64,000 nt of DNA from an uncultured Haloferula sp. (GTDB lineage: Bacteria > Verrucomicrobiota > Verrucomicrobiia > Verrucomicrobiales > Akkermansiaceae). Location of the stretch: NCBI GenBank assembly GCA_965652295.1, contig CBFGTS010000007.1, positions 1 through 64,000 of the forward strand, written 5' to 3'. The position numbers were made by a program, and so were the translations under genes. Every line of letters begins with the position of its first letter. Within the stretch, counting starts at the first letter, position 1. Shown here in pieces: positions 49,526 to 60,092 of this stretch. The notes under the pieces were generated by a model, which worked only from the letters and a program-made list of their open reading frames with translations, was not told the DNA's origin and searched no databases.

Positions 49526-49792
49526 TCAATCGTCACCGGATGCTTGGATTAATACGTCTGCGAGTCGCAGATCCAGAGCCCGACACCAGCGCAACAAAAC
49601 CACTAAGCCCGGCTGCGACAGTCCGCGCTCCGCACGAGACAGGTAGGAATAGGCGATGCCCATCTTCCCGTTGAGGTCCCGTAGCGTTAGGCCTCTCTCG
49701 CGGCGTTTCTCCCGAAGAATCGAAACGATCCCAAGCAAAACGTCCATATCCGGATCACCAGATGGATTAGCATCATGCTTGAGCGAAGACAT
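49526..49792 (-). CDS. XRE-family HTH regulator
   Basis: LREKRRERGLTLRDL...YLSRAERG...P. Confidence 0.8.
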   Translation of the reverse strand: MSSLKHDANPSGDPDMDVLLGIVSILREKRRERGLTLRDLNGKMGIAYSYLSRAERGLSQPGLVVLLRWCRALDLRLADVLIQASGDD

Positions 49793-50022
49793 CCCTTCAT
49801 CCTGAAGGGGACGGGAGCGGGATGTAGGAATTTTACTCTTGTTCCCTATGTCGCACAGCCTAGGCTTTCAGCCATACCTGCTGCCGTGATCATGATTCTC
49901 TCTCGCTTTCCTTCCGGGATCGCTCCCCCCCCTGAGGGTGCACCCGCTCGATCCCCAGAGCGGTCGGCGTGCGCCCTCTCCTTCTGTCCTTGGTCGATTT
50001 TCGTCTGGATTGGGATCAGCGG

Positions 50023-50277
50023 CTACTTCCGCTCCAAGACGAAGGCCAATTCTTCCAAAAACTGCTGGGGCGTCACCTTGCACGCTTTGCAGAAGCAGAT
50101 CCACTCGATCAGATCAATCCGCCGCTGCCCGCGTAAAATGTCGCTCACGGTGGATTGGCTCACGTCCATCTTCTTGGCGAGCTGCTGCTGGGTCAGCCCC
50201 GCATCCGCCCGCACCCGGGCCATCACTTTCAACACGGATTCCTGATCGGCGGAATAGATCGACTTTGCTGCCACCAT
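50023..50277 (-). CDS. XRE-family HTH regulator
   Basis: SIYS, RADAGLTQQQLA...QSTVS...GQRRIDLIE. Confidence 0.85.
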   Translation of the reverse strand: MVAAKSIYSADQESVLKVMARVRADAGLTQQQLAKKMDVSQSTVSDILRGQRRIDLIEWICFCKACKVTPQQFLEELAFVLERK

Positions 50278-50478
50278 CGAAAACTGCCAAACTTGGTGAA
50301 TTATCGAAAATTCTGGCAAATTATTGGAATTATCGTTATTCGTTCTGACGTCTCCGTATCTTCACAAGAATTTCTTCATAGATGATCGATACCCGACGCA
50401 ACCTCTCAAAACTCCGCTTTGTCATGAAGAGCCTCCTTTCGCTCTCGTCCTGCTTGCGGGGCTTTCCCCTCCTTCCCT

Positions 50479-51315
50479 ATGAGATTCCCATTCCTCCCTA
50501 CCTCCGCCTTCTTGCTGGCGCTGGCCTTGCTCCCCTCCCGCGCTGCTGAACCCATCCCCGCTGCCGGTCCGCTCCAAGTGGCCGATGGCGTCCCGGATCC
50601 CTCTCTCATCCACTTCACTCCTCCGGCTCCTCCTCCGCCCGCTCCGGACATCGAGGTCGAGGCCCGCAGCGTCCTCCAAGCCGGCTCCCACCGCTTGGAC
50701 CTCCTCCGCGGTGCCCCCTCCGAGCTCCCCGACCTGCCCGAGCCGGTTGCTGCCGAGGCCCGCATCGGGCTCCCGTCACTCTCCGAGCATCCTACCACCG
50801 CGACCGTCACCCTCGGCCTCTCGGTGGTCATCTACGATCACCAACTCTCCCACCTCCGTTGGCGCGACCCGCGCAATGGCGAAGTCTTCGAGGCATGGTG
50901 CGCCTGGGACTGGGAACTTGTCTCGCCCATCGGCCAACTCACCGGCGACCGATTCGATTGCATCATCCTCTCCACCCCTGAGATCGTCATCACCACCCAC
51001 CCGGGGCGGCCGCAGGCTGCCATTCCTTCCCATCCACAACTCGCTCCCGGCACCTTCCAGCTGGTGTCCGGTTCCGCCGATTCTCCCCTTGGAGCGGCTT
51101 TCCTCGAAGCCTACCGGCGTCACCTTTCCGCGAACCGTCCGCAGCTCGAAGCCGTGCTGGCTGCCCGCCGCCAAGCCGCGGCCGATGCCGCCGCCTGGCG
51201 CGAGGCCAACCCCGGAACCGTGCGCGATTCGACCGTCTGGCTGCGCCCCCACCGCGGCAGCCGCTACCTCAAGGCAGCGGGAACCACCGGCGAAAGAAAG
51301 GAGGCCGGGAAATGA
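50479..51315 (+). CDS. Secreted hypothetical protein, partner of the downstream large protein
   Basis: Signal peptide, Pro-rich linker, IYDH..SHLRW...EAW core; ATGA overlap with the next gene. Confidence 0.75.
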   Translation: MRFPFLPTSAFLLALALLPSRAAEPIPAAGPLQVADGVPDPSLIHFTPPAPPPPAPDIEVEARSVLQAGSHRLDLLRGAPSELPDLPEPVAAEARIGLPSLSEHPTTATVTLGLSVVIYDHQLSHLRWRDPRNGEVFEAWCAWDWELVSPIGQLTGDRFDCIILSTPEIVITTHPGRPQAAIPSHPQLAPGTFQLVSGSADSPLGAAFLEAYRRHLSANRPQLEAVLAARRQAAADAAAWREANPGTVRDSTVWLRPHRGSRYLKAAGTTGERKEAGK

Positions 51316-53774
51316 AAACCCTGCTCTTTTGCCTGATCTTCGTTCTGGGCACATTTTTTCCTGCCGTCGGGCAGGATGCCGGTCAAAACTCCGAGATCCT
51401 CGTGGTTTCCCAAGACAAATTCCTGCGCTTCCACGGCCACGCCGGGCGCACCTACTTCATCCAGGCTTCCGATCCACTAAGCCACCTCCGGCAGTGGTTG
51501 TGGATGCCCGTGATCGAGACCGGCAACGATTCGGACATCAGCTACGAAGTCGGCGGGACCGACCCCAAGGGATTTTTCCGCCTCGTTTACAGCGACGTCC
51601 CGAAGCCCGCCGGCGTGAGCCTTGAGGATTGGGATCTCGACGGCGACGGGCTGAGCAACTGGGACGAAATCACCCTTCACGGCACCTATCCCGACAAGCC
51701 GGACACCGACGGCGACGGCATGACCGACGGTTGGGAGGTGACTCACGACCTCGATCCTCAAAATCCCAACGACGCCTTCGACGATCCCGACGGCGACGGA
51801 ACGGATAATCGGGAGGAACACGATCAGCAAACCGATCCCGGAAACCAAGCGGACTTTCCAACTCAAATCTGGTCGGTGACCGCCGCGGCTAGCGGGAGTT
51901 CTTCGGTGTGGACTTCTGAGATTAAAAAGCACACCCGCAAGCGCAATTGGAACGAATCGACTTATAGTGAACCTCAAGAGGGTTCCGGGCATCTTGCGGT
52001 GGCGGAGCTCAAAGCCCTTGTTGAAGGTCTGACACTTCCAGAGACGCTAGCGGAAGCGAAGGCCGAGCCCGATTACATTCATTACAACGAAAGCGGAGCT
52101 TCGGCACATGGACATTTTCACCAATCCGCGAGCTCTTCCGAAGCCAGACAGGGAAACCACACAGTTACTCGTGTCTGGGTGCGCATGCCTGCGAAAGCTG
52201 AGCAGCAAACGCGCCAATTCATCAAGGTGACATCCCGGAACCATCCGGACGCCGACACTGTGGTGGAGTCGGGAACCGTCACCGTGACCGTTCCTGCCAA
52301 CCAAACGGAATCAGAGTACGTCGATTTGACGTGCGACAACATCATGGTGTCCGGGAAGGACGTGATTACTGACGTTGAGCTCCTGCCGGTGGAGTTATAC
52401 AGCGACTTGAACAACGACGGACAGTTGACGAGTGCCGACAGCGGGCTTGTCGGTAAAGCCTATGCCAGCGGTGTTAGCGAGGACGAGAAGGACAAGGGGA
52501 CCGAATTCATGTTCGCCAATGACCAGCTCTCGAATGGTGCATGGGATAAGGAAGACAGCACTACACCAGGTAAGCCCGCAGGCACCGACGATGACGATGC
52601 CGAGGAACTGCACATCAATCCCGGTATCACCGAAGGCGAGGTGTGGCTCGACCATCCGGCGATTACCGGGTTGAAGTTCTATCGGGACAAAAAATGCACA
52701 CAGCAAATCAATATTTCGACGAGTAGTCATTTTGACCTCACTCCTGACAACCCGTTTCCCGATAAAGTGTTCATGCGAGCGGAGAGCGTAAACTTCACCG
52801 ATACCAGTAACCCTCAGGTTGAGGGCGACCTGAAGCTAATAATTAAACCTGATGGCGGTGATGCCAACGGCATCGAAGCCACCAAGATGAGGCTCACTGT
52901 CATTAAGGATTTGGGATCCCAAAAATACTTCCACGGCGTTCGAGATTATATTTTTGAGAATAATACGAAGACTTTCACGCATCACAAAAATTACGGAACT
53001 TCAACCCGGTATCGAATTGTGGCAATGCGCGAAGAATCCACAGAAATGTTTGGGTTGGATACCTACGACCATGTGTCTGATGAACCTCGTCTCAAGGGTA
53101 TCAATGCTGTAAAAGATAATTATTTTTCCGACGTAATTATTAACGGCAACCAGTGTTTCTTTAGTGGTGCTTACTTTTTTGGGAGTATGACAGATCGCTG
53201 CGATGGGCGGCTGTGTGTCGGCAGGCAGATACTTCGCCCTCCTTCTGATGACACGCACAATCCGAACTTGGGAGGCCCAGGAGCGCGCTACGTCGGAAAT
53301 TCTATGGGAGAGCCTGAGATAGTGGACGGGGTATTAGCCATCCCGAGTCATTTCACCTTTGCGACCGGTCAGGTTCCTGAGGGCGTGCCGGCGACTTCAG
53401 ATCACGGCATCGGAGGCTTGGCTGCGAAATATGACCGCGCTGAATTGCAACAAAGTGAGAACCAGGCGATCGGCCGGGCGTTTGTCACGGATCCCGGAAA
53501 AGGAGTGGTGTTTACTGCGACAACATATGTTGGAAACCCAGGGAAGGCTATTTCTCTCGCGGCGGACGCGCACAGATCCGGCGTTCAACCTTTGAGTGGT
53601 GGGGCTGCGGGTACCTGGGAGCTGTTATTTCTGGATGGTTCGTCCTCAGTTGGCTTAGTGCTTGCCAGTCCGAACGGGGATCAACAGATCGTGATCAAGG
53701 GGAGTAAGCACGACGGGAATTTTTACTACATAAATACTTATCTTCTATTTGAGTGTAAGCGGCCGAGAAATTAG
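51312..53774 (+). CDS. Large secreted protein with TSP3-like DxDGDG repeats and a lower-GC C-terminal domain (putative polymorphic effector)
   Basis: Signal peptide; GGAGG upstream; DLDGDGLSN, DTDGDGMTD, DPDGDGTDN; C-terminal INGN and LDGSSS motifs. Confidence 0.8.
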   Translation: MKTLLFCLIFVLGTFFPAVGQDAGQNSEILVVSQDKFLRFHGHAGRTYFIQASDPLSHLRQWLWMPVIETGNDSDISYEVGGTDPKGFFRLVYSDVPKPAGVSLEDWDLDGDGLSNWDEITLHGTYPDKPDTDGDGMTDGWEVTHDLDPQNPNDAFDDPDGDGTDNREEHDQQTDPGNQADFPTQIWSVTAAASGSSSVWTSEIKKHTRKRNWNESTYSEPQEGSGHLAVAELKALVEGLTLPETLAEAKAEPDYIHYNESGASAHGHFHQSASSSEARQGNHTVTRVWVRMPAKAEQQTRQFIKVTSRNHPDADTVVESGTVTVTVPANQTESEYVDLTCDNIMVSGKDVITDVELLPVELYSDLNNDGQLTSADSGLVGKAYASGVSEDEKDKGTEFMFANDQLSNGAWDKEDSTTPGKPAGTDDDDAEELHINPGITEGEVWLDHPAITGLKFYRDKKCTQQINISTSSHFDLTPDNPFPDKVFMRAESVNFTDTSNPQVEGDLKLIIKPDGGDANGIEATKMRLTVIKDLGSQKYFHGVRDYIFENNTKTFTHHKNYGTSTRYRIVAMREESTEMFGLDTYDHVSDEPRLKGINAVKDNYFSDVIINGNQCFFSGAYFFGSMTDRCDGRLCVGRQILRPPSDDTHNPNLGGPGARYVGNSMGEPEIVDGVLAIPSHFTFATGQVPEGVPATSDHGIGGLAAKYDRAELQQSENQAIGRAFVTDPGKGVVFTATTYVGNPGKAISLAADAHRSGVQPLSGGAAGTWELLFLDGSSSVGLVLASPNGDQQIVIKGSKHDGNFYYINTYLLFECKRPRN

Positions 53775-53786
53775 GTTTTAATATAC

Positions 53787-54773
53787 ATGAAAATTCATAT
53801 TCGAGTTTTGTTGGGTTTCGCAATTGGTGCAGTGCTTCTGACGGGATGTGATCAAAAAAAAGCATCCCCAGGCGCAGAGAAAAAAAGCGACGTTCCTATT
53901 TCATCAGAGGCACTCCCTGACTTACTCGTGTTGGACGACAAGAAATTGGATCGCGACCGTGAAGGGGCTGAAGTGAGGGGTCCTAAGCAGAAACATTCGG
54001 AAATTATTTCTTCTCCAAATCAGTCGAACCCAATTGGGGATCGGCTAAGGAGTCACCTGGAAGGCCTCCGTCCAGATGAATCAGAGTATGATTATGTTAT
54101 AAATCAACTTTGGAACAAGAGTCTTTCTCAAATGTCAAATGAAGTGCTCGAAAGTTCGCATGAAGAAGATGTATACAAGGGTGTGATGCTGCCTAAGGAA
54201 TTAAAAGGAATGGAGCCTTCAAATAGATGGGTAGACACTCCCGAAGCCATGCTAGGTGGTGTAGCATTTATGGCTGTCGCTGCGAATGATGGTCTGCTGC
54301 TTAGCCTTGCCCAGCAAGCTTCGGATACGTTGCCTCCCACAAAGGCGGACTTGGCTATTTTTGAGGCTTTAAACGATGCGATAAAAGAGCTTGGATCCAC
54401 TAGAACGATTGCGTCGTTTGAAAATTGGAAACCTTTAGCGAGAGCTCGCAATCCATTGTATCGGCTGCTTGCTCTAAGAGCTGCAATACGTTCGACCTCG
54501 CAGGCTGCCTCCGACCTGTCGTCAGAGGACCCGAGCTACAACCGTGTCGATGGGTCTGCCAAGCTCGACTTCTACCTAGGCTTCCTTGACGAAAAAGATC
54601 CACTCATATTGGGCGAGGCAATTTCTGCCGTTGCAACCGTACCAACCCCCGAAGCCCGGCAAGCAATCGAGAAGTTCAAGGCGACGCAGCAACAACGTGG
54701 AAATGCCTCGCTCGTGGAGGCTGCGACAGTAGCTCTTCGCACCCAGGAATTGATCTCCAAAAGCTCGCGTTGA
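53787..54773 (+). CDS. Low-GC lipoprotein with HEAT-like C-terminus (putative immunity protein)
   Basis: Lipobox LTGC (Cys21); starts 12 nt after the upstream stop; helical C-terminus. Confidence 0.75.
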   Translation: MKIHIRVLLGFAIGAVLLTGCDQKKASPGAEKKSDVPISSEALPDLLVLDDKKLDRDREGAEVRGPKQKHSEIISSPNQSNPIGDRLRSHLEGLRPDESEYDYVINQLWNKSLSQMSNEVLESSHEEDVYKGVMLPKELKGMEPSNRWVDTPEAMLGGVAFMAVAANDGLLLSLAQQASDTLPPTKADLAIFEALNDAIKELGSTRTIASFENWKPLARARNPLYRLLALRAAIRSTSQAASDLSSEDPSYNRVDGSAKLDFYLGFLDEKDPLILGEAISAVATVPTPEARQAIEKFKATQQQRGNASLVEAATVALRTQELISKSSR

Positions 54774-55004
54774 TTTAGAGGGTCATGGAGATACTCAACA
54801 AGATCGACGTGGTCACACGGCAAGTGAATACGCCATCAGGATGTAGCTCGAGCGGGCGGATGGTTCAATTTGACCAGTCACTGCTCAGGATGGAGGTTTT
54901 GCCCACCTAGCCAAGGCCCCATTCAATGGTGCCCGAACCCTCATTTAAATTCGCTGCTGATCCCCGGTTCGGCTCAATTTAGTAACTCAAGCCCCATAGA
55001 CATC

Positions 55005-55451
55005 ATGACGGTCAAGCGTATGGACAACGTCGGCATCGTGGTCGAAGACCTCGATGCCGCCATTGAGTTTTTCGCCGCGCTGGGGCTTGAACTCGAGGGG
55101 CGAGCTCCAATCGAGGGGGACTGGGCTGACGGCGTCACAGGGCTTCGTGACATGTGCGTCGAAATCGCCATGATGCGGACTCCGGACGGCCACGGTAGGA
55201 TTGAGATTTCCCGATTCATCGCCCCGCCGGTGATCTCCGATCACCGCGCTGCCCCGGTGAACGCTCTCGGCTACCTGCGGGTCATGTTCAATGTCGAGGA
55301 TATGGACGATACGCTCGACCGCCTCGGGAAGTACGGCGTGGAGATCGTTGGCAGGGTGGTCCGGTATGAAGATGCCTATAAGATTTGCTACATCCGAGGG
55401 CCTGAGGGAATCCTGATTGGACTCGCGCAAGATCTCGGACAGGAAAGTTGA
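55005..55451 (+). CDS. VOC/glyoxalase family protein
   Basis: MDNVGIVVEDLDAAIEFF..LGL, CYIRGPEGILI. Confidence 0.9.
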   Translation: MTVKRMDNVGIVVEDLDAAIEFFAALGLELEGRAPIEGDWADGVTGLRDMCVEIAMMRTPDGHGRIEISRFIAPPVISDHRAAPVNALGYLRVMFNVEDMDDTLDRLGKYGVEIVGRVVRYEDAYKICYIRGPEGILIGLAQDLGQES

Positions 55452-55510
55452 GTCGCACCGCGAGGACGGGCCCGAACGGTGCCAACTTGAGCCCGTGGTC
55501 GAAAGAACTC

Positions 55511-58237
55511 TTATGCCGGCCGGACGGTCTCGGCCATGGCGGAGAGGTGAGGCTGCTTCCCCCCGAGGAAGGCGGCGACGCGGGCTGCGGTGACATCAGG
55601 CGCGGCGCAGGTGGCGGCGTAGTCGATTTCCAGGGTGGGCAGGCGGTGGCGCTTGAGGAAAGCGTGGGCGGAGAGCAGTTGGTCGTGGAACGCCCGGCTC
55701 AGGGCGAGAGTGTCCGGGTCGCGCCCTCCGAGCATGCGGCGTTGCGAATCGATCACTTGATCGACGGGGCGGCGCATGAGGATGACGCGGTAGTGGATGG
55801 GTTCGCCGTGGGCGTCGCGCACGGGAAGGAAGGGCAGGAGGGGGGCGACGATTTTGACCGCATGCCCGCGGGCTTCGGGTAGCCAGCGGTTGTCCTTCGA
55901 GAGATCGAGCGTGGCGCGGTGCTCAAGGTAGCCGTGCGGGTTGGAGGCGTCGGCGGCGCGGGCGTGGTCGGTGAAAACCGGGACACCGGCGGCGGCGAGC
56001 ATCTGCATCATCATGGAGGTGCCGGAGCGGGGAAGGCCGCTGACGACGGTGATGATCTGTTCGGGCGGAGCTTCGGTTTCGATGGGAAAATCGAAATTCG
56101 GAGTCGAGGGAAGCGGTGCCGGCGCGGCGGGTTCGACCCGTTGTTTTTCGAGGGAGCGGAGCTTCTGCCGGGCGGCGTGGGCGAGGGAGGAGAAGGAGGC
56201 GGAAAGGCCGCTGTCGCCGCGATGGCGGAGCTGGATTTCCGAGAGCATCCGGTAGGCCGGGGCGTGCGAGGAGTTCATCCGGATGGTGACCAGAAAGGCC
56301 TGTTCGGCGCGGTCGATGTGGCTGGCGCGGTAGCAGGCCATGCCGAGGAGGAAGTGCACCAGAGGTTGCTCGAAAACGAGGCGGAGCGACTCCGTGGCGG
56401 CCTCGATGGCGGCCTCGAAATCGCGACGTCCGAGGCGGGCGCGTGCGATGCCTTTCCATGCCGAAGGGTTGTCGGGGTCGATTTCGAGGACCTCTCGGAA
56501 GATGGCTTCCGCTTCATTCCATTCGCGGAGGCGGAGCAGCATATCGGCCTCGGTGTTCCGGGCATCGGGCCGCGAGCGGTAGGCGGGGGAGGTGGCACGC
56601 AGCCGGGCGAGGGCGCGGCGGTAGTCGCCAGCGGAGAAGTCACCGAAGGCCATGAAGTGGCGCAGGGCGTCGCGGTCGACATAGGCGCGGGTTTCGCGGC
56701 GTGCCGGATTTTGCGGATCCGGCTCTCTTCGGACGCGTCGCGCGTCGCGCAGGCGGTCGCGGACCAGTTCGCGGACGAGACGTTTCACCTCGGCGGGGTG
56801 GCCGATGGCGTGGTGGCAGGCGGCGAGGCGGACACCGAAGCGGGGCTCGCCGGGCCACTCTTGGCGCAGGCGTTCCAGCAGCGGCCGGGCGTCGGCATAG
56901 CGCCCGCAGTCCATGTAGCTCTGGGCGAGGTTGTAGGAGAGTTCGCGGGTGGTTTTTTCCGCCTCGGCACTGGCATCGGCGTCGGGCGGGGAAATGTAGC
57001 CGAGGGCGACGAGTTGCTCGATCGCCGCCCGCGTGTCGGTGGGGCTGGCGGTGGTGCCGACGGGGTGGCTGCCGTCCTCGCCTTCGAGGGCTTCCCAGCT
57101 CGGGATCGAGCGGACGGGTGGCGCGGCTTCGGCGAGTTCCGGGATGATTTTTCCATCCATGTCCTGTCCGACGGGAAGTCCGAAGAGGGCGAGGATGCTC
57201 GGGCAAATGTCGAGGATGCCGGCTCCCATGACCTTGCGGCCTGCCGGGATGCCCGGGCCGCGTGCGGCGAAAATCCCGAAGCGGCGGTGTTCGCTCGCCG
57301 GCCCGGCGGGTTCGATGGGGAGAGCGGTCGGCAACTGCGAGCCGGACTGGAAGCCGTGGTCGGACACGAGCAGTACGGTGGCGTCCTCGCCAGCGAGCTG
57401 GAGCAACGTGCCGAGCATCATGTCGTGGTAGCGGTAGGCTGCCTCGACGACGCCGTGATAGAGTTCGAAGTCGCGTTCCGGGACGTCCGCGCGGTGGGGC
57501 GGGTGGAACTTCATGAAGCCGTGGCAGAAGTGGTCGATCGCATCGAGGTAAACGGCCGCGAAGTCCCATTCCTCGTTTTGCATGAGCCCGGTGGTCACGC
57601 CGTGGAGCGTGGTGCACTCGGCCAGGATGCGGGCGATGGCTTGCAGGCGGATGTCCGACGCTTGATCGATCTCCGCCGCCCGGGGAACAAAGGGTAGCAG
57701 GTGCGAGGCGTCGAGCTGGTGCGGGTGGATGCGGAGGTTGGCGAGCGTGTTGGCGAGGTGGGGCGGATGCACTGCGCCGGGCGGCACGGGCCAGTCCTGA
57801 TCGACCGCTGCGGTGGTGAGCTGGAACTGGTTGGAGACCATGCAGCCATCGATCGGCTCGGCGGGATGGCTCGGCCACCAGCCGACGACGAGCGAACGCA
57901 GCCCGTGGAGCTGGAGCATGTTCCAGAGGGCGCGGCAGCGGCGCGAAAGTGAGGTCACCGGGCGCACGCCGCCGCTCAGCGGGTCGAGTTCCGTGAAGCC
58001 GTGGATGCCATGTTTGAAAGGACGCTTCCCCGTGGCGATGCTTGTCCAGAGCATCGGCGAAAGCGCCGGCTGGATGGTAGCCAAGCTGCCGGAGACGCCT
58101 TCCTGGAGAAAGCGGGCGAGGTGGGGCATTTTCCCCGTCGCGACCAGCGGGTGGATGATCTGCCAGTCGGCGGCATCCCAGCCGATCAGGAGCACTTTCC
58201 GTCGGCCGGGGGTGGCGCCCTGCGGCTCAGGCGGCAT
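55511..58237 (-). CDS. Alkaline-phosphatase/NPP superfamily - TPR - sulfotransferase fusion
   Basis: GWDAADW, LSPMLWTSIATG, SDHGF, LVALGYI; TPRs; SGLPRSGTS PAPS-binding loop, NPHGYLE. Confidence 0.85.
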   Translation of the reverse strand: MPPEPQGATPGRRKVLLIGWDAADWQIIHPLVATGKMPHLARFLQEGVSGSLATIQPALSPMLWTSIATGKRPFKHGIHGFTELDPLSGGVRPVTSLSRRCRALWNMLQLHGLRSLVVGWWPSHPAEPIDGCMVSNQFQLTTAAVDQDWPVPPGAVHPPHLANTLANLRIHPHQLDASHLLPFVPRAAEIDQASDIRLQAIARILAECTTLHGVTTGLMQNEEWDFAAVYLDAIDHFCHGFMKFHPPHRADVPERDFELYHGVVEAAYRYHDMMLGTLLQLAGEDATVLLVSDHGFQSGSQLPTALPIEPAGPASEHRRFGIFAARGPGIPAGRKVMGAGILDICPSILALFGLPVGQDMDGKIIPELAEAAPPVRSIPSWEALEGEDGSHPVGTTASPTDTRAAIEQLVALGYISPPDADASAEAEKTTRELSYNLAQSYMDCGRYADARPLLERLRQEWPGEPRFGVRLAACHHAIGHPAEVKRLVRELVRDRLRDARRVRREPDPQNPARRETRAYVDRDALRHFMAFGDFSAGDYRRALARLRATSPAYRSRPDARNTEADMLLRLREWNEAEAIFREVLEIDPDNPSAWKGIARARLGRRDFEAAIEAATESLRLVFEQPLVHFLLGMACYRASHIDRAEQAFLVTIRMNSSHAPAYRMLSEIQLRHRGDSGLSASFSSLAHAARQKLRSLEKQRVEPAAPAPLPSTPNFDFPIETEAPPEQIITVVSGLPRSGTSMMMQMLAAAGVPVFTDHARAADASNPHGYLEHRATLDLSKDNRWLPEARGHAVKIVAPLLPFLPVRDAHGEPIHYRVILMRRPVDQVIDSQRRMLGGRDPDTLALSRAFHDQLLSAHAFLKRHRLPTLEIDYAATCAAPDVTAARVAAFLGGKQPHLSAMAETVRPA

Positions 58238-58856
58238 CGCGGTGGCGACGGCGGTGGAAGGTCGAAATGCCGGCGGCACCGAGGGCCAGCAGGGCCAGTC
58301 CGGAAGGTTCGGGGACGGCACCGACTTCGAGCGTCGCGCCGCTGTCGTCGTAAGCCCATTCGAGGATGCGGGCGTCGGCGAGCACCGTGTTGGAGACGGA
58401 AATACGAGCCCAGCCGTAGACCGGATTACCTCCGTTCACATCGTCGGAGGTGAAGGTGAAGGCGAACAGGTTGTCGCTGGAAAACTGGGCGTTGTTGGCG
58501 AGGAAGACGGAGCCTGACTGGTATCCGAAGATGCGGTCCGAACCGGAGAATGCACCGGGCGTGTCGCCGATTTTGACTGTTGGCGCGCTGCTTTCACGAA
58601 AGAAGCCGAAGAGATCGCCGGAGGCCATGGAGAGCGGTCCGATGCCGCGGACGAAGCCGTAGGCGCTGGAGGCGAACTCGGTGCCGATGGTCAGCCCGAC
58701 TTCCTGGTTTCCGGCCGGGGTGATGTCACCGGTGCTGGTGACGCTCAGCCCGTCCATGTGAATGATCGCGCCGTGGGCGGAGGGGGCGAGGGTTCCGGCG
58801 GCGAGGAGGAGTTTTGCGGTCCGGTCGTAGAAGGAGGAACGAGGCTGGGTAGGCAT
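58227..58856 (-). CDS. PEP-CTERM surface protein
   Basis: Signal peptide; YGWARI; C-terminal VPEPSGLALLALGAAG...RRR. Confidence 0.88.
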   Translation of the reverse strand: MPTQPRSSFYDRTAKLLLAAGTLAPSAHGAIIHMDGLSVTSTGDITPAGNQEVGLTIGTEFASSAYGFVRGIGPLSMASGDLFGFFRESSAPTVKIGDTPGAFSGSDRIFGYQSGSVFLANNAQFSSDNLFAFTFTSDDVNGGNPVYGWARISVSNTVLADARILEWAYDDSGATLEVGAVPEPSGLALLALGAAGISTFHRRRHRDAA

Positions 58857-58987
58857 GCGCTCAGTGATTGAGTTTCGAGGCTCTCAGATAACGGAAAGTC
58901 TTCTGTGGCGACAAGACTTAACTTTCCGGGATGACGTAGGAGTTGCTCCGGGTGGAGGTCATGGATTCGCGAGCACCGGCTCCCGGA

Positions 58988-59902
58988 TCATGCGGCTTTG
59001 CGACGCCGGCTGGTGAGAAGCAGGGCGGCGGCACCAGCGAAGGCAAACGAACCGGGTTCCGGCACGGTGCTGAAGGTGACGCCGATCGAGGAGAAGTAGC
59101 CTCCGGCGACCAAGGTGGACGGATCGATGAAGCCGATGCGGTCGTTCCCTCCGTCGGCCAGGGCACCGGTTTGCATGCCGAGATAGAGCATGTCGGTGGA
59201 AGGGCGGCCGGCGATGACGGAGTAGGGGACAAGGATGGCGACATCCACCTCGTTGGAGCCGAGCGTGCTGAGTCCCGCCGAGTAGACGCGATGGGGATCG
59301 GAGCCGTAGGGCAGAGTGTCGCCCGAAGCGAAGAGCTGGGGCGAGGTGTGCTGCTGATAGATGAGGTTGATGCCCAGCGGATCGTTTGCGGCGGTGTTGG
59401 ACTGCATTTGAAGCATGCTTTCCCATTTGCTGATCTGCTGGGCTTTGACGGAGCCGGGCCAAGCGAGAGCGGCCATGTTGGGATCAATCGTGGTGGCGAC
59501 CGAGAGGGTGTCGGCGCTGGCGGGCCCGGCCCAAAGCATGAAGTTGATGACGTCGAAATCCGGTGTTCCTCCGGTTTCGTTGAAGTCGATTCCGAAGGCG
59601 AGGTAGCGGGTGCCTTGGAAGGTCAAAGTCGGCACCTGCCCCAGGGTGATGGGTTCCATGTCGGCTTGGGTGAAGCCGGACAGGTTGTCCTTCGACCAGT
59701 TGGCCTTTCCGTCGTCGACCTTGAAGGCGGGATTGATGTTGATCCCCGGCCGCATGATGTAGATCGAGTCGCCGTAGTCGGTCGGGACGCGCGCCTCGGA
59801 GCCGGCGGTGGAGCTCTCAAAGAAGACGGAGGTGGCGGACGCCGGAACAATGAGACTGGCGAGGGAAAGGGCGGCGAAAGGGGCTCGGCCAAATCGGGGC
59901 AT
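58988..59902 (-). CDS. PEP-CTERM surface protein
   Basis: Signal peptide (ASA); C-terminal VPEPGS, TM helix, RRRK. Confidence 0.85.
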   Translation of the reverse strand: MPRFGRAPFAALSLASLIVPASATSVFFESSTAGSEARVPTDYGDSIYIMRPGININPAFKVDDGKANWSKDNLSGFTQADMEPITLGQVPTLTFQGTRYLAFGIDFNETGGTPDFDVINFMLWAGPASADTLSVATTIDPNMAALAWPGSVKAQQISKWESMLQMQSNTAANDPLGINLIYQQHTSPQLFASGDTLPYGSDPHRVYSAGLSTLGSNEVDVAILVPYSVIAGRPSTDMLYLGMQTGALADGGNDRIGFIDPSTLVAGGYFSSIGVTFSTVPEPGSFAFAGAAALLLTSRRRKAA

Positions 59903-60092
59903 CAGGGTACGGTACGCGAGCATGCGTGGGGGTAGGGGTGGGGTGTGGGCGGAAGACGGGTGGGGGTGGACCCTTAAGGAATCTGAAATGCTTATGGACA
60001 CGAAGCACCTCTCCTGCAAGCTACGAAATTGCGTAGAAGTAGCGGCTCCGGACTTCGTTTTCCCCGGCCCCGGCAGGGGACGGAGGAGTAAC

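Follow-up and report, generated by a model that had tools for sequence, protein, structure and literature searches.

The region described here lies in a stretch of 64,000 nucleotides (the window) from an uncultured Haloferula sp. (assembly GCA_965652295.1, contig CBFGTS010000007.1), which is contig C7 of a host genome of 4.37 Mb that is 98% complete. Three consecutive genes of the window encode a partner protein, a large modular effector and a lipoprotein, and two XRE-family regulator genes are located upstream in the opposite orientation (Table 1). The open reading frames (ORFs) of partner and effector overlap by ATGA, and the lipoprotein ORF, which has the lipobox LLTG-C21, begins 12 nt after the effector. 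According to visual inspection and a crude hydropathy score for signal peptides, partner, effector and lipoprotein all bear export signals. The match of the effector to TSP3_bac had an E-value of 4.4e-6. This five-gene layout, with its two minus-strand XRE genes and its TSP3 protein, is the one given by the first-pass annotation, which had proposed a polymorphic effector/immunity system. The annotation had also described the 3' part of the large gene and the lipoprotein gene as AT-rich, and this was borne out: G+C content at third codon positions was 0.50 for effector residues 541-820 and 0.45 for the lipoprotein, compared to 0.77 for the partner and 0.75 for effector residues 1-190, in a window with an overall G+C content of ~0.65.

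Table 1. Positions of the cassette features in the window (pLDDT, predicted local distance difference test)
Feature	Position	Strand	Remarks
XRE-family HTH regulator 1	49526..49792	-	HTH_3 E 1.9e-10; optional part
XRE-family HTH regulator 2, divergent from cassette	50023..50277 (ATG at 50277), or to 50319 with TTG start	-	HTH_3 E 7e-12; optional part
Partner/adaptor (putative), 278 aa, secreted, no known family	50479..51315	+	Long beta strands and 38-residue helix
Effector, 820 aa, modular, exported	51312..53774	+	
N-terminal tag domain, aa ~26-95 of effector	51387..51596	+	Homologous to extreme-C-terminal domain of 67 host proteins
TSP3-type DxDxDG repeats, aa ~108-181, presumed Ca2+-binding	51633..51854	+	PF18884; nucleotide repeat family D2
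LLPVE junction between conserved scaffold and swappable module	52380..52394	+	Identity breaks; start of tip-homologue matches
Ig-like beta domain, start of swappable module	52395..52931	+	Ig/pilin-like matches Z 4.4-7.7 over model residues 1-185; model pLDDT 95.6
NAGPA/DUF2233 phosphodiester-glycosidase-fold tip	52932..53771	+	D775-GSSS loop 53634-53648; K799/H800 nearby
Cognate lipoprotein, 328 aa, predicted immunity/inhibitor of tip	53787..54773	+	Linkage and complex score

Exchange of effector tips together with the downstream gene

The host genome contains a second cassette on contig C8, the effector of which is 61% identical to that of the window over residues 25-361, is unrelated beyond, and is followed by a different downstream gene. 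Protein identity with this paralog stops at residue 361 and DNA identity at position 52363, just before the LLPVE codons, and many tip homologues begin matching at residues ~355-360. With the swap point at about residues 357-361, the conserved region is not confined to residues ~1-190, as had been assumed in the first-pass annotation. A single low-depth sludge contig, fitting 52118-52394 and then continuing with 117 unfitted letters just past LLPVE, provided a weak hint of the same break. In runs X4 and X7, contigs covered 52572-54790 poorly or not at all, which we do not count as evidence; no RNA data set was listed as holding the locus, and this tells nothing about its expression. Residues beyond position 400 of the window's effector were shared by none of 35 other proteins.

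Polymorphism was analyzed in 31 non-RHS cassettes that had been selected for having a downstream gene. These fell into 23 tip clusters and 26 downstream-gene clusters, and all four multi-member downstream-gene clusters coincided with tip clusters. On the level of sequence, the scaffold comprising the tag domain, the TSP3 repeats and a beta linker is conserved, and whatever lies beyond LLPVE is exchanged along with the gene behind it. As had been predicted earlier, both the C-termini and the downstream genes are variable, and they vary jointly. The downstream gene product had a hydrophobic N-terminus in 30 of the 31 cassettes and a C-terminal anchor in 17. Other loci, but not the window, contain extra genes that resemble orphan immunity genes; at two loci these matched the cognate partners of other cassettes (L035_g3 and L037_g2, 88%; L046_g3 and L001_g2, 53%).

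Among the tips, one is an Amidase_3 domain (E 1.5e-30), some have HExxH motifs as read by eye, and protease- and lipase-like tips are also present. Others may, by their motifs, be lytic-transglycosylase- and caspase-like. The protease- and lipase-like tips, and the link between predation and giant TSP3-rich proteins of the PVC group (Planctomycetes, Verrucomicrobia, Chlamydiae) made in part of 10.1101/2023.11.21.568195, would suit a family of predation or anti-eukaryote effectors in which the only role of the downstream gene is to guard the producer against accidental damage to itself. We consider such a family highly improbable: according to a portion of 10.1101/2025.01.14.632903, effectors of this kind usually occur without immunity genes, whereas nearly every complete cassette here comes with an exported cognate partner, and in some there are additional ones.

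None of the three cassette proteins of the window matched the RHS, PAAR, VgrG, FHA or LXG families in Pfam and NCBIfam, in agreement with the first reading of the region. The family as a whole is, however, linked to RHS: RHS proteins are encoded at 11 related loci, mostly behind a small gene with tag and TSP3 repeats, and are followed mostly by small genes.

Fold of the tip and its predicted lipoprotein complex

In a model of effector residues 358-820 (pLDDT 95.6), a NAGPA/DUF2233 fold comes after an Ig-like domain. The tip aligned with 3ohg at Z 19.1 (root-mean-square deviation 3.5, 230 aligned residues), the next unrelated match having a Z of 7.7, and the fold was also recovered by Foldseek (E 2.6e-8) and in the Atlas (0.94). 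The tip did not match PF09992, and sequence searches of PDB with tip and lipoprotein profiles yielded nothing significant. Residues 395-820 had 73 homologues, which are placed on many different N-termini, including Ig/RCC1 scaffolds of 1,921 and 3,004 residues. Among 66 homologues, D775 is invariant and S779 is present in 62. The surrounding loop reads D-[GS]-[GS]-x-S, with varying glycines, and is DGSSS in the copy of the window; in a profile alignment of low confidence, the position of the canonical Arg is taken by K799.

The tip is closely linked to the lipoprotein. At all eight metagenome loci of the tip, six of them distinct, a lipoprotein homologue was encoded directly downstream, in one case linked only through a relative. 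Conversely, the tip was found directly upstream at 10 of 12 genome loci of the lipoprotein (E<1e-7, seven weaker matches being outside this count), one of the ten showing only the last 25 tip positions at a contig end; of the two remaining loci, one had no upstream DNA and one was a partial match. The pair occurs on unrelated scaffolds, tip and lipoprotein moving as a unit. The identities of the two proteins co-vary (rho 0.54 for 16 pairs, confounded by kinship).

Structure prediction of the tip-lipoprotein complex resulted in a score of 0.81, the best of three controls scoring 0.00. Of 157 solved complexes, 116 reached the mark applied to this score, as did 2 of 215 mismatched pairs; for our own alignments, these counts are only a rough guide. 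Runs agreed in at least 84% of contacts, with a pLDDT of at least 87 for the partner chain. Among the residues at the predicted interface are S777 and S778, from the DGSSS loop, as well as S798 and N803-Y805, flanking the presumed active site. The model thereby supports binding of the lipoprotein to the tip at its catalytic loop. No similar pair with a solved complex was retrieved from PDB by sequence searches.

The partner family, the terminal tag and the genomic setting

The partner belongs to a family of 1,382 clusters at 50% identity (E<=0.001). Of 61 relatives, 14 had matches (36 in total, with as many as nine per genome), as had 19 of 301 genomes from across the phylum; a contig scan with the single partner sequence returned one locus only. 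The few named relatives are Verrucomicrobiota. Among 144 family members there was only one weak Pfam match. The partner model (pLDDT 90) has long strands and a 38-residue helix, does not clearly resemble any structure (best Z 3.8) and had no match in the Atlas; several TULIP-like proteins match at Z 2.5-3.8 with poor root-mean-square deviation, which we regard as a lead only.

We compared 55 partner loci, comprising all 35 distinct loci from relatives and 20 of the 34 matches from the phylum set. At 50 of these, a beta domain of ~70 residues, the tag, was encoded in the next gene or in the same frame as the partner. At the other five, the partner was frameshifted (one locus) or truncated (one), or the locus was at a contig end (three). 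Most junctions between partner and next gene overlap in the ATGA manner, and three clean fusions of partner and tag have no second signal peptide (P0121, L119, L121). Partner and tag identities co-vary (Mantel rho 0.68 for 24 loci, confounded by kinship). Six cassettes of relatives are split, frameshifted or truncated, by decay or assembly error (L042, L045, L048, L053, L055, L106). One genome has two cassettes ~13 kb apart (L051 and L058 on G026:C1), and at L114 a second short pair of Ig tip and PEP-CTERM gene, resembling a spare tip module, is located behind the first.

A profile of the effector's N-terminal domain also matched host proteins at their very end. When a profile was built from these C-terminal ends only and iterated on the host genome, it found 76 ORFs, 67 of them with the domain within 12 residues of the stop; it reciprocally matched the effector N-termini (hhalign 98.4%, E 6e-15). 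Of the 67 proteins, 52 passed a crude signal-peptide test, and the tag is often placed after TSP3 repeats (examples L124-L143). Twenty examples and the window's copy matched no Pfam or NCBIfam family, and the tag profile bears a weak resemblance to one half of a CBM32/discoidin domain (E 2e-4). The terminal position suggests that the tag is a sorting or anchoring signal. Judged by its sequence relatives, the N-terminal domain of the effector would seem to be a lineage-wide export or surface tag.

Searches for matching export machinery were carried out in the host genome. No type VI secretion system (T6SS) was found: VipA (PF05591) and VgrG-type (PF05954) profiles were unmatched, and positive controls were detected. 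PorV was likewise not found, its positive control being detected. The SprA_N search matched nowhere and is uninformative on a type IX secretion system (T9SS). Four secretins were present.

The host also encodes a second family of tagged cassettes, with copies at C1:461680-464772(-), C5:280824-283904(-), C14:60669-63611(-) and C3:240149-243181(-) (L144-L147). Their layout is a signal peptide, a tag split by an insert of ~125 residues, TSP3 repeats and an HExxH tip, followed by one or two similar genes for exported, membrane-anchored proteins; in two copies there is a divergent XRE gene. Related genes occurred in 27 of 81 genomes, many of the matches being weak, and an HExxH tip was present in 15 of 20 fetched genes, the others having hydrolase-, CHAP- or nuclease-like tips. 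In one member (L216:2062-6839(-)) the next gene lacks a signal peptide, as would be expected if immunity is cytoplasmic; the tip of this member, without a Pfam match, is histidine-rich and presumably nuclease-like by its motif. Homology of the ~125-residue insert to the partner was considered and is unsupported, with no hidden Markov model match and an hhalign value of 0.96% compared to a shuffled maximum of 0.81%.

The order of partner and TSP3 protein, which the first-pass annotation had expected to be conserved together with an XRE gene, is indeed conserved, whereas the XRE gene is not constant. Of 54 other partner loci, nine had an XRE gene in the 2.3 kb upstream; at six loci, less than 1.5 kb of upstream DNA was available. 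The XRE pair was therefore rejected as a core part, and we regard the regulator as recurrent but optional. In the AT-rich gap between the second XRE gene and the partner (50284-50335), two imperfect 23-nt direct repeats may be operator sites. The segment of 49.3-60 kb is a variable insert because in 11 of 24 congener loci examined (32 genomes having the gene) the upstream metallophosphoesterase gene is joined directly to the gene at ~60-61 kb of the window. The remainder of the insert (55005-59920) contains a glyoxalase/VOC gene, a phosphodiesterase-TPR-sulfotransferase fusion and two PEP-CTERM genes. No repeats flanking an element were found in 49-56 kb. In three different genomes (L035, L036, L057) the cassette is preceded by a similar gene of ~1,190 codons, and two of these loci have common downstream genes resembling a mobile element, suggesting carriage on one.

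Proposed function and relation to known systems

Modular swapping, cognate pairing, the tip fold and the predicted binding all emerged from the computations. We conclude that the cassette probably encodes a verrucomicrobial antibacterial polymorphic effector that acts on the envelope and is accompanied by periplasmic immunity. In the mechanism we propose, the effector would be exported by Sec, and the partner, as an adaptor, would bind the N-terminal tag and chaperone or display the effector. The tag would then send it to the surface by the pathway of the ~67 C-terminally tagged host proteins, for which a secretin/type II secretion-like route is the only candidate found. The tip, presumed to be toxic, would cleave a sugar-1-phosphate bond in the envelope of a rival, for example in a lipid-carrier-linked precursor or a phosphodiester-linked polysaccharide, and the periplasmic lipoprotein would block the tip in the producer and its kin.

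Several observations weigh against this conclusion. Tip labels other than amidase are mostly weak matches or motifs read by eye (alpha/beta-hydrolase; CHAP, E 0.093; Tlde1, E 0.095), and a PDB sequence search with the single CHAP-like tip gave nothing significant. The loci derive from related genomes and are not independent, and no route across the target's outer membrane was identified. Seven loci, listed by hand, end in a PEP-CTERM-type gene, which at six of them is preceded by choice-of-anchor L, Ig or C25 proteins. These loci look like surface display rather than toxin and immunity, and the partner-tag module is therefore not restricted to toxins. As for the tip, DGGGS occurs in none of the loop variants listed, which cover 65 of 66 homologues, compared to 24 of 30 canonical proteins, and the canonical hPRT motif is replaced according to a low-confidence alignment. 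In parts of PMC13474241, DGGGS is called invariant and its Asp and the Arg essential, and G288A and G289A are reported to abolish the activity of human NAGPA. Since D775 is kept while DGGGS is altered and hPRT is lost, the chemistry of the tip is probably related with a different substrate, or the domain may be inactive.

A dead sugar-phosphate-binding tip would be expected in a polymorphic adhesin or kin-recognition structure with the lipoprotein as receptor or anchor. The degenerate loop, the lost hPRT motif, the TSP3, Ig and LamG domains, the PEP-CTERM-linked versions and the CBM32/discoidin-like tag are all consistent with such a structure. The strict conservation of D775 and near-conservation of S779, and the enzyme motifs kept by many other tips (Amidase_3, and HExxH by eye), make it quite improbable. 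As a further alternative, the cassette might encode a modular, surface-displayed enzyme for foraging or envelope remodelling that liberates sugars or phosphate from dead cells or from polymers in the environment, its lipoprotein serving as holdase or inhibitor during transit. The tag also occurs in 67 ordinary proteins of the host, the majority of which have a signal-like N-terminus, canonical NAGPA genes are frequent in the phylum (49 of 121 genomes), and the predicted complex is compatible with any inhibitor. Conflict is favored, however, by tip swapping at a fixed junction, low-GC pairs of tip and cognate partner, extra genes of orphan type, the linkage to RHS and a patchy distribution, and the host already has a separate canonical PF09992 NAGPA gene (C4:9737-10231(-)); we regard a foraging enzyme as unlikely.

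The antibacterial effector may be part of a larger scheme, which we offer tentatively and hold to be doubtful as a whole. Verrucomicrobia would have an undescribed sorting pathway that reads a terminal tag of ~70 residues, and a new toxin chemistry. Housekeeping cargo would be tagged C-terminally and antibacterial effectors N-terminally with the partner as dedicated adaptor, because the swappable C-terminus must stay free; RHS toxins would be served by a small separate tag protein. The tip would be a phosphodiester glycosidase that attacks envelope sugar-phosphates, and the lipoprotein a new inhibitor that blocks it.

Verrucomicrobia abound in soil and water, and their protein export and their fighting of rivals are poorly described. 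The cassettes represent a large unnamed family with markers (partner, tag and LLPVE junction) for the mining of enzyme tips and cognate inhibitors. As a proposed antibacterial tip, a NAGPA-fold enzyme would hint at bacterial substrates of DUF2233 proteins, and the ~70-residue tag is a candidate lineage-wide sorting tag that is directly testable.

The C-terminal domain of T9SS cargo is a short beta domain that ends dozens of signal-peptide proteins of one genome. The tag resembles it in its small size, its beta structure and its place at the very end of dozens of such host proteins, and differs in that PorV was not found in the host, the tag has no family match, and it is also used N-terminally. 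The MafA/MafB/MafI systems of Neisseria have the order partner, signal-peptide toxin, immunity, and no marker of type V or type VI secretion. The first-pass annotation's loose comparison with MafA/MafB holds for gene order and for the absence of such markers, as an analogy only; neither effector nor partner matches a Maf family in Pfam or NCBIfam, the partner is not a lipoprotein, and the downstream genes here are nearly all exported. Unlike Rhs toxins, the effector has no RHS/YD repeats or core, RHS being confined to the 11 related loci, and unlike T6SS effector cassettes, the cassette has no PAAR/VgrG marker and its host genome no T6SS match. With NAGPA/DUF2233 proteins (3ohg, 6pku; PF09992) the tip shares the fold, the Asp and Ser of the loop and, with low confidence, K799 at the Arg position; its altered loop, the loss of hPRT, the missing PF09992 match, its swappable nature and its dedicated lipoprotein partner set it apart.

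In the literature searched, mostly open papers whose supplements may list such architectures, no description was found of the partner, the tag, a NAGPA-fold toxin tip or a NAGPA tip with an immunity protein, and the portions of PMC4960237 and 10.1101/2023.11.21.568195 that were covered do not describe the system. In part of 10.1101/2025.01.14.632903, NAGPA is proposed as a component of secreted conflict proteins of Bacillota (TelC+NAGPA). These proteins and the Cystatin-like polymorphic toxins treated there likewise have envelope-targeting tips and membrane or periplasmic immunity proteins; they differ from the cassette in lineage and scaffold, NAGPA in the TelC+NAGPA proteins being in the two-enzyme core of a large protein, and the main text, as far as covered, mentions neither Verrucomicrobia nor TSP3. 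The features of polymorphic toxin systems given in part of PMC3482391, namely a conserved N-terminal trafficking region, a recombining C-terminal tip, an adjacent cognate gene, extra immunity-like genes and RHS-bearing members, are all shared by the cassette family, whose partner and N-terminal tag, in contrast, match no Pfam or NCBIfam family apart from the single weak partner hit. Taken together, it is largely supported that the cassette operates like polymorphic toxin systems.

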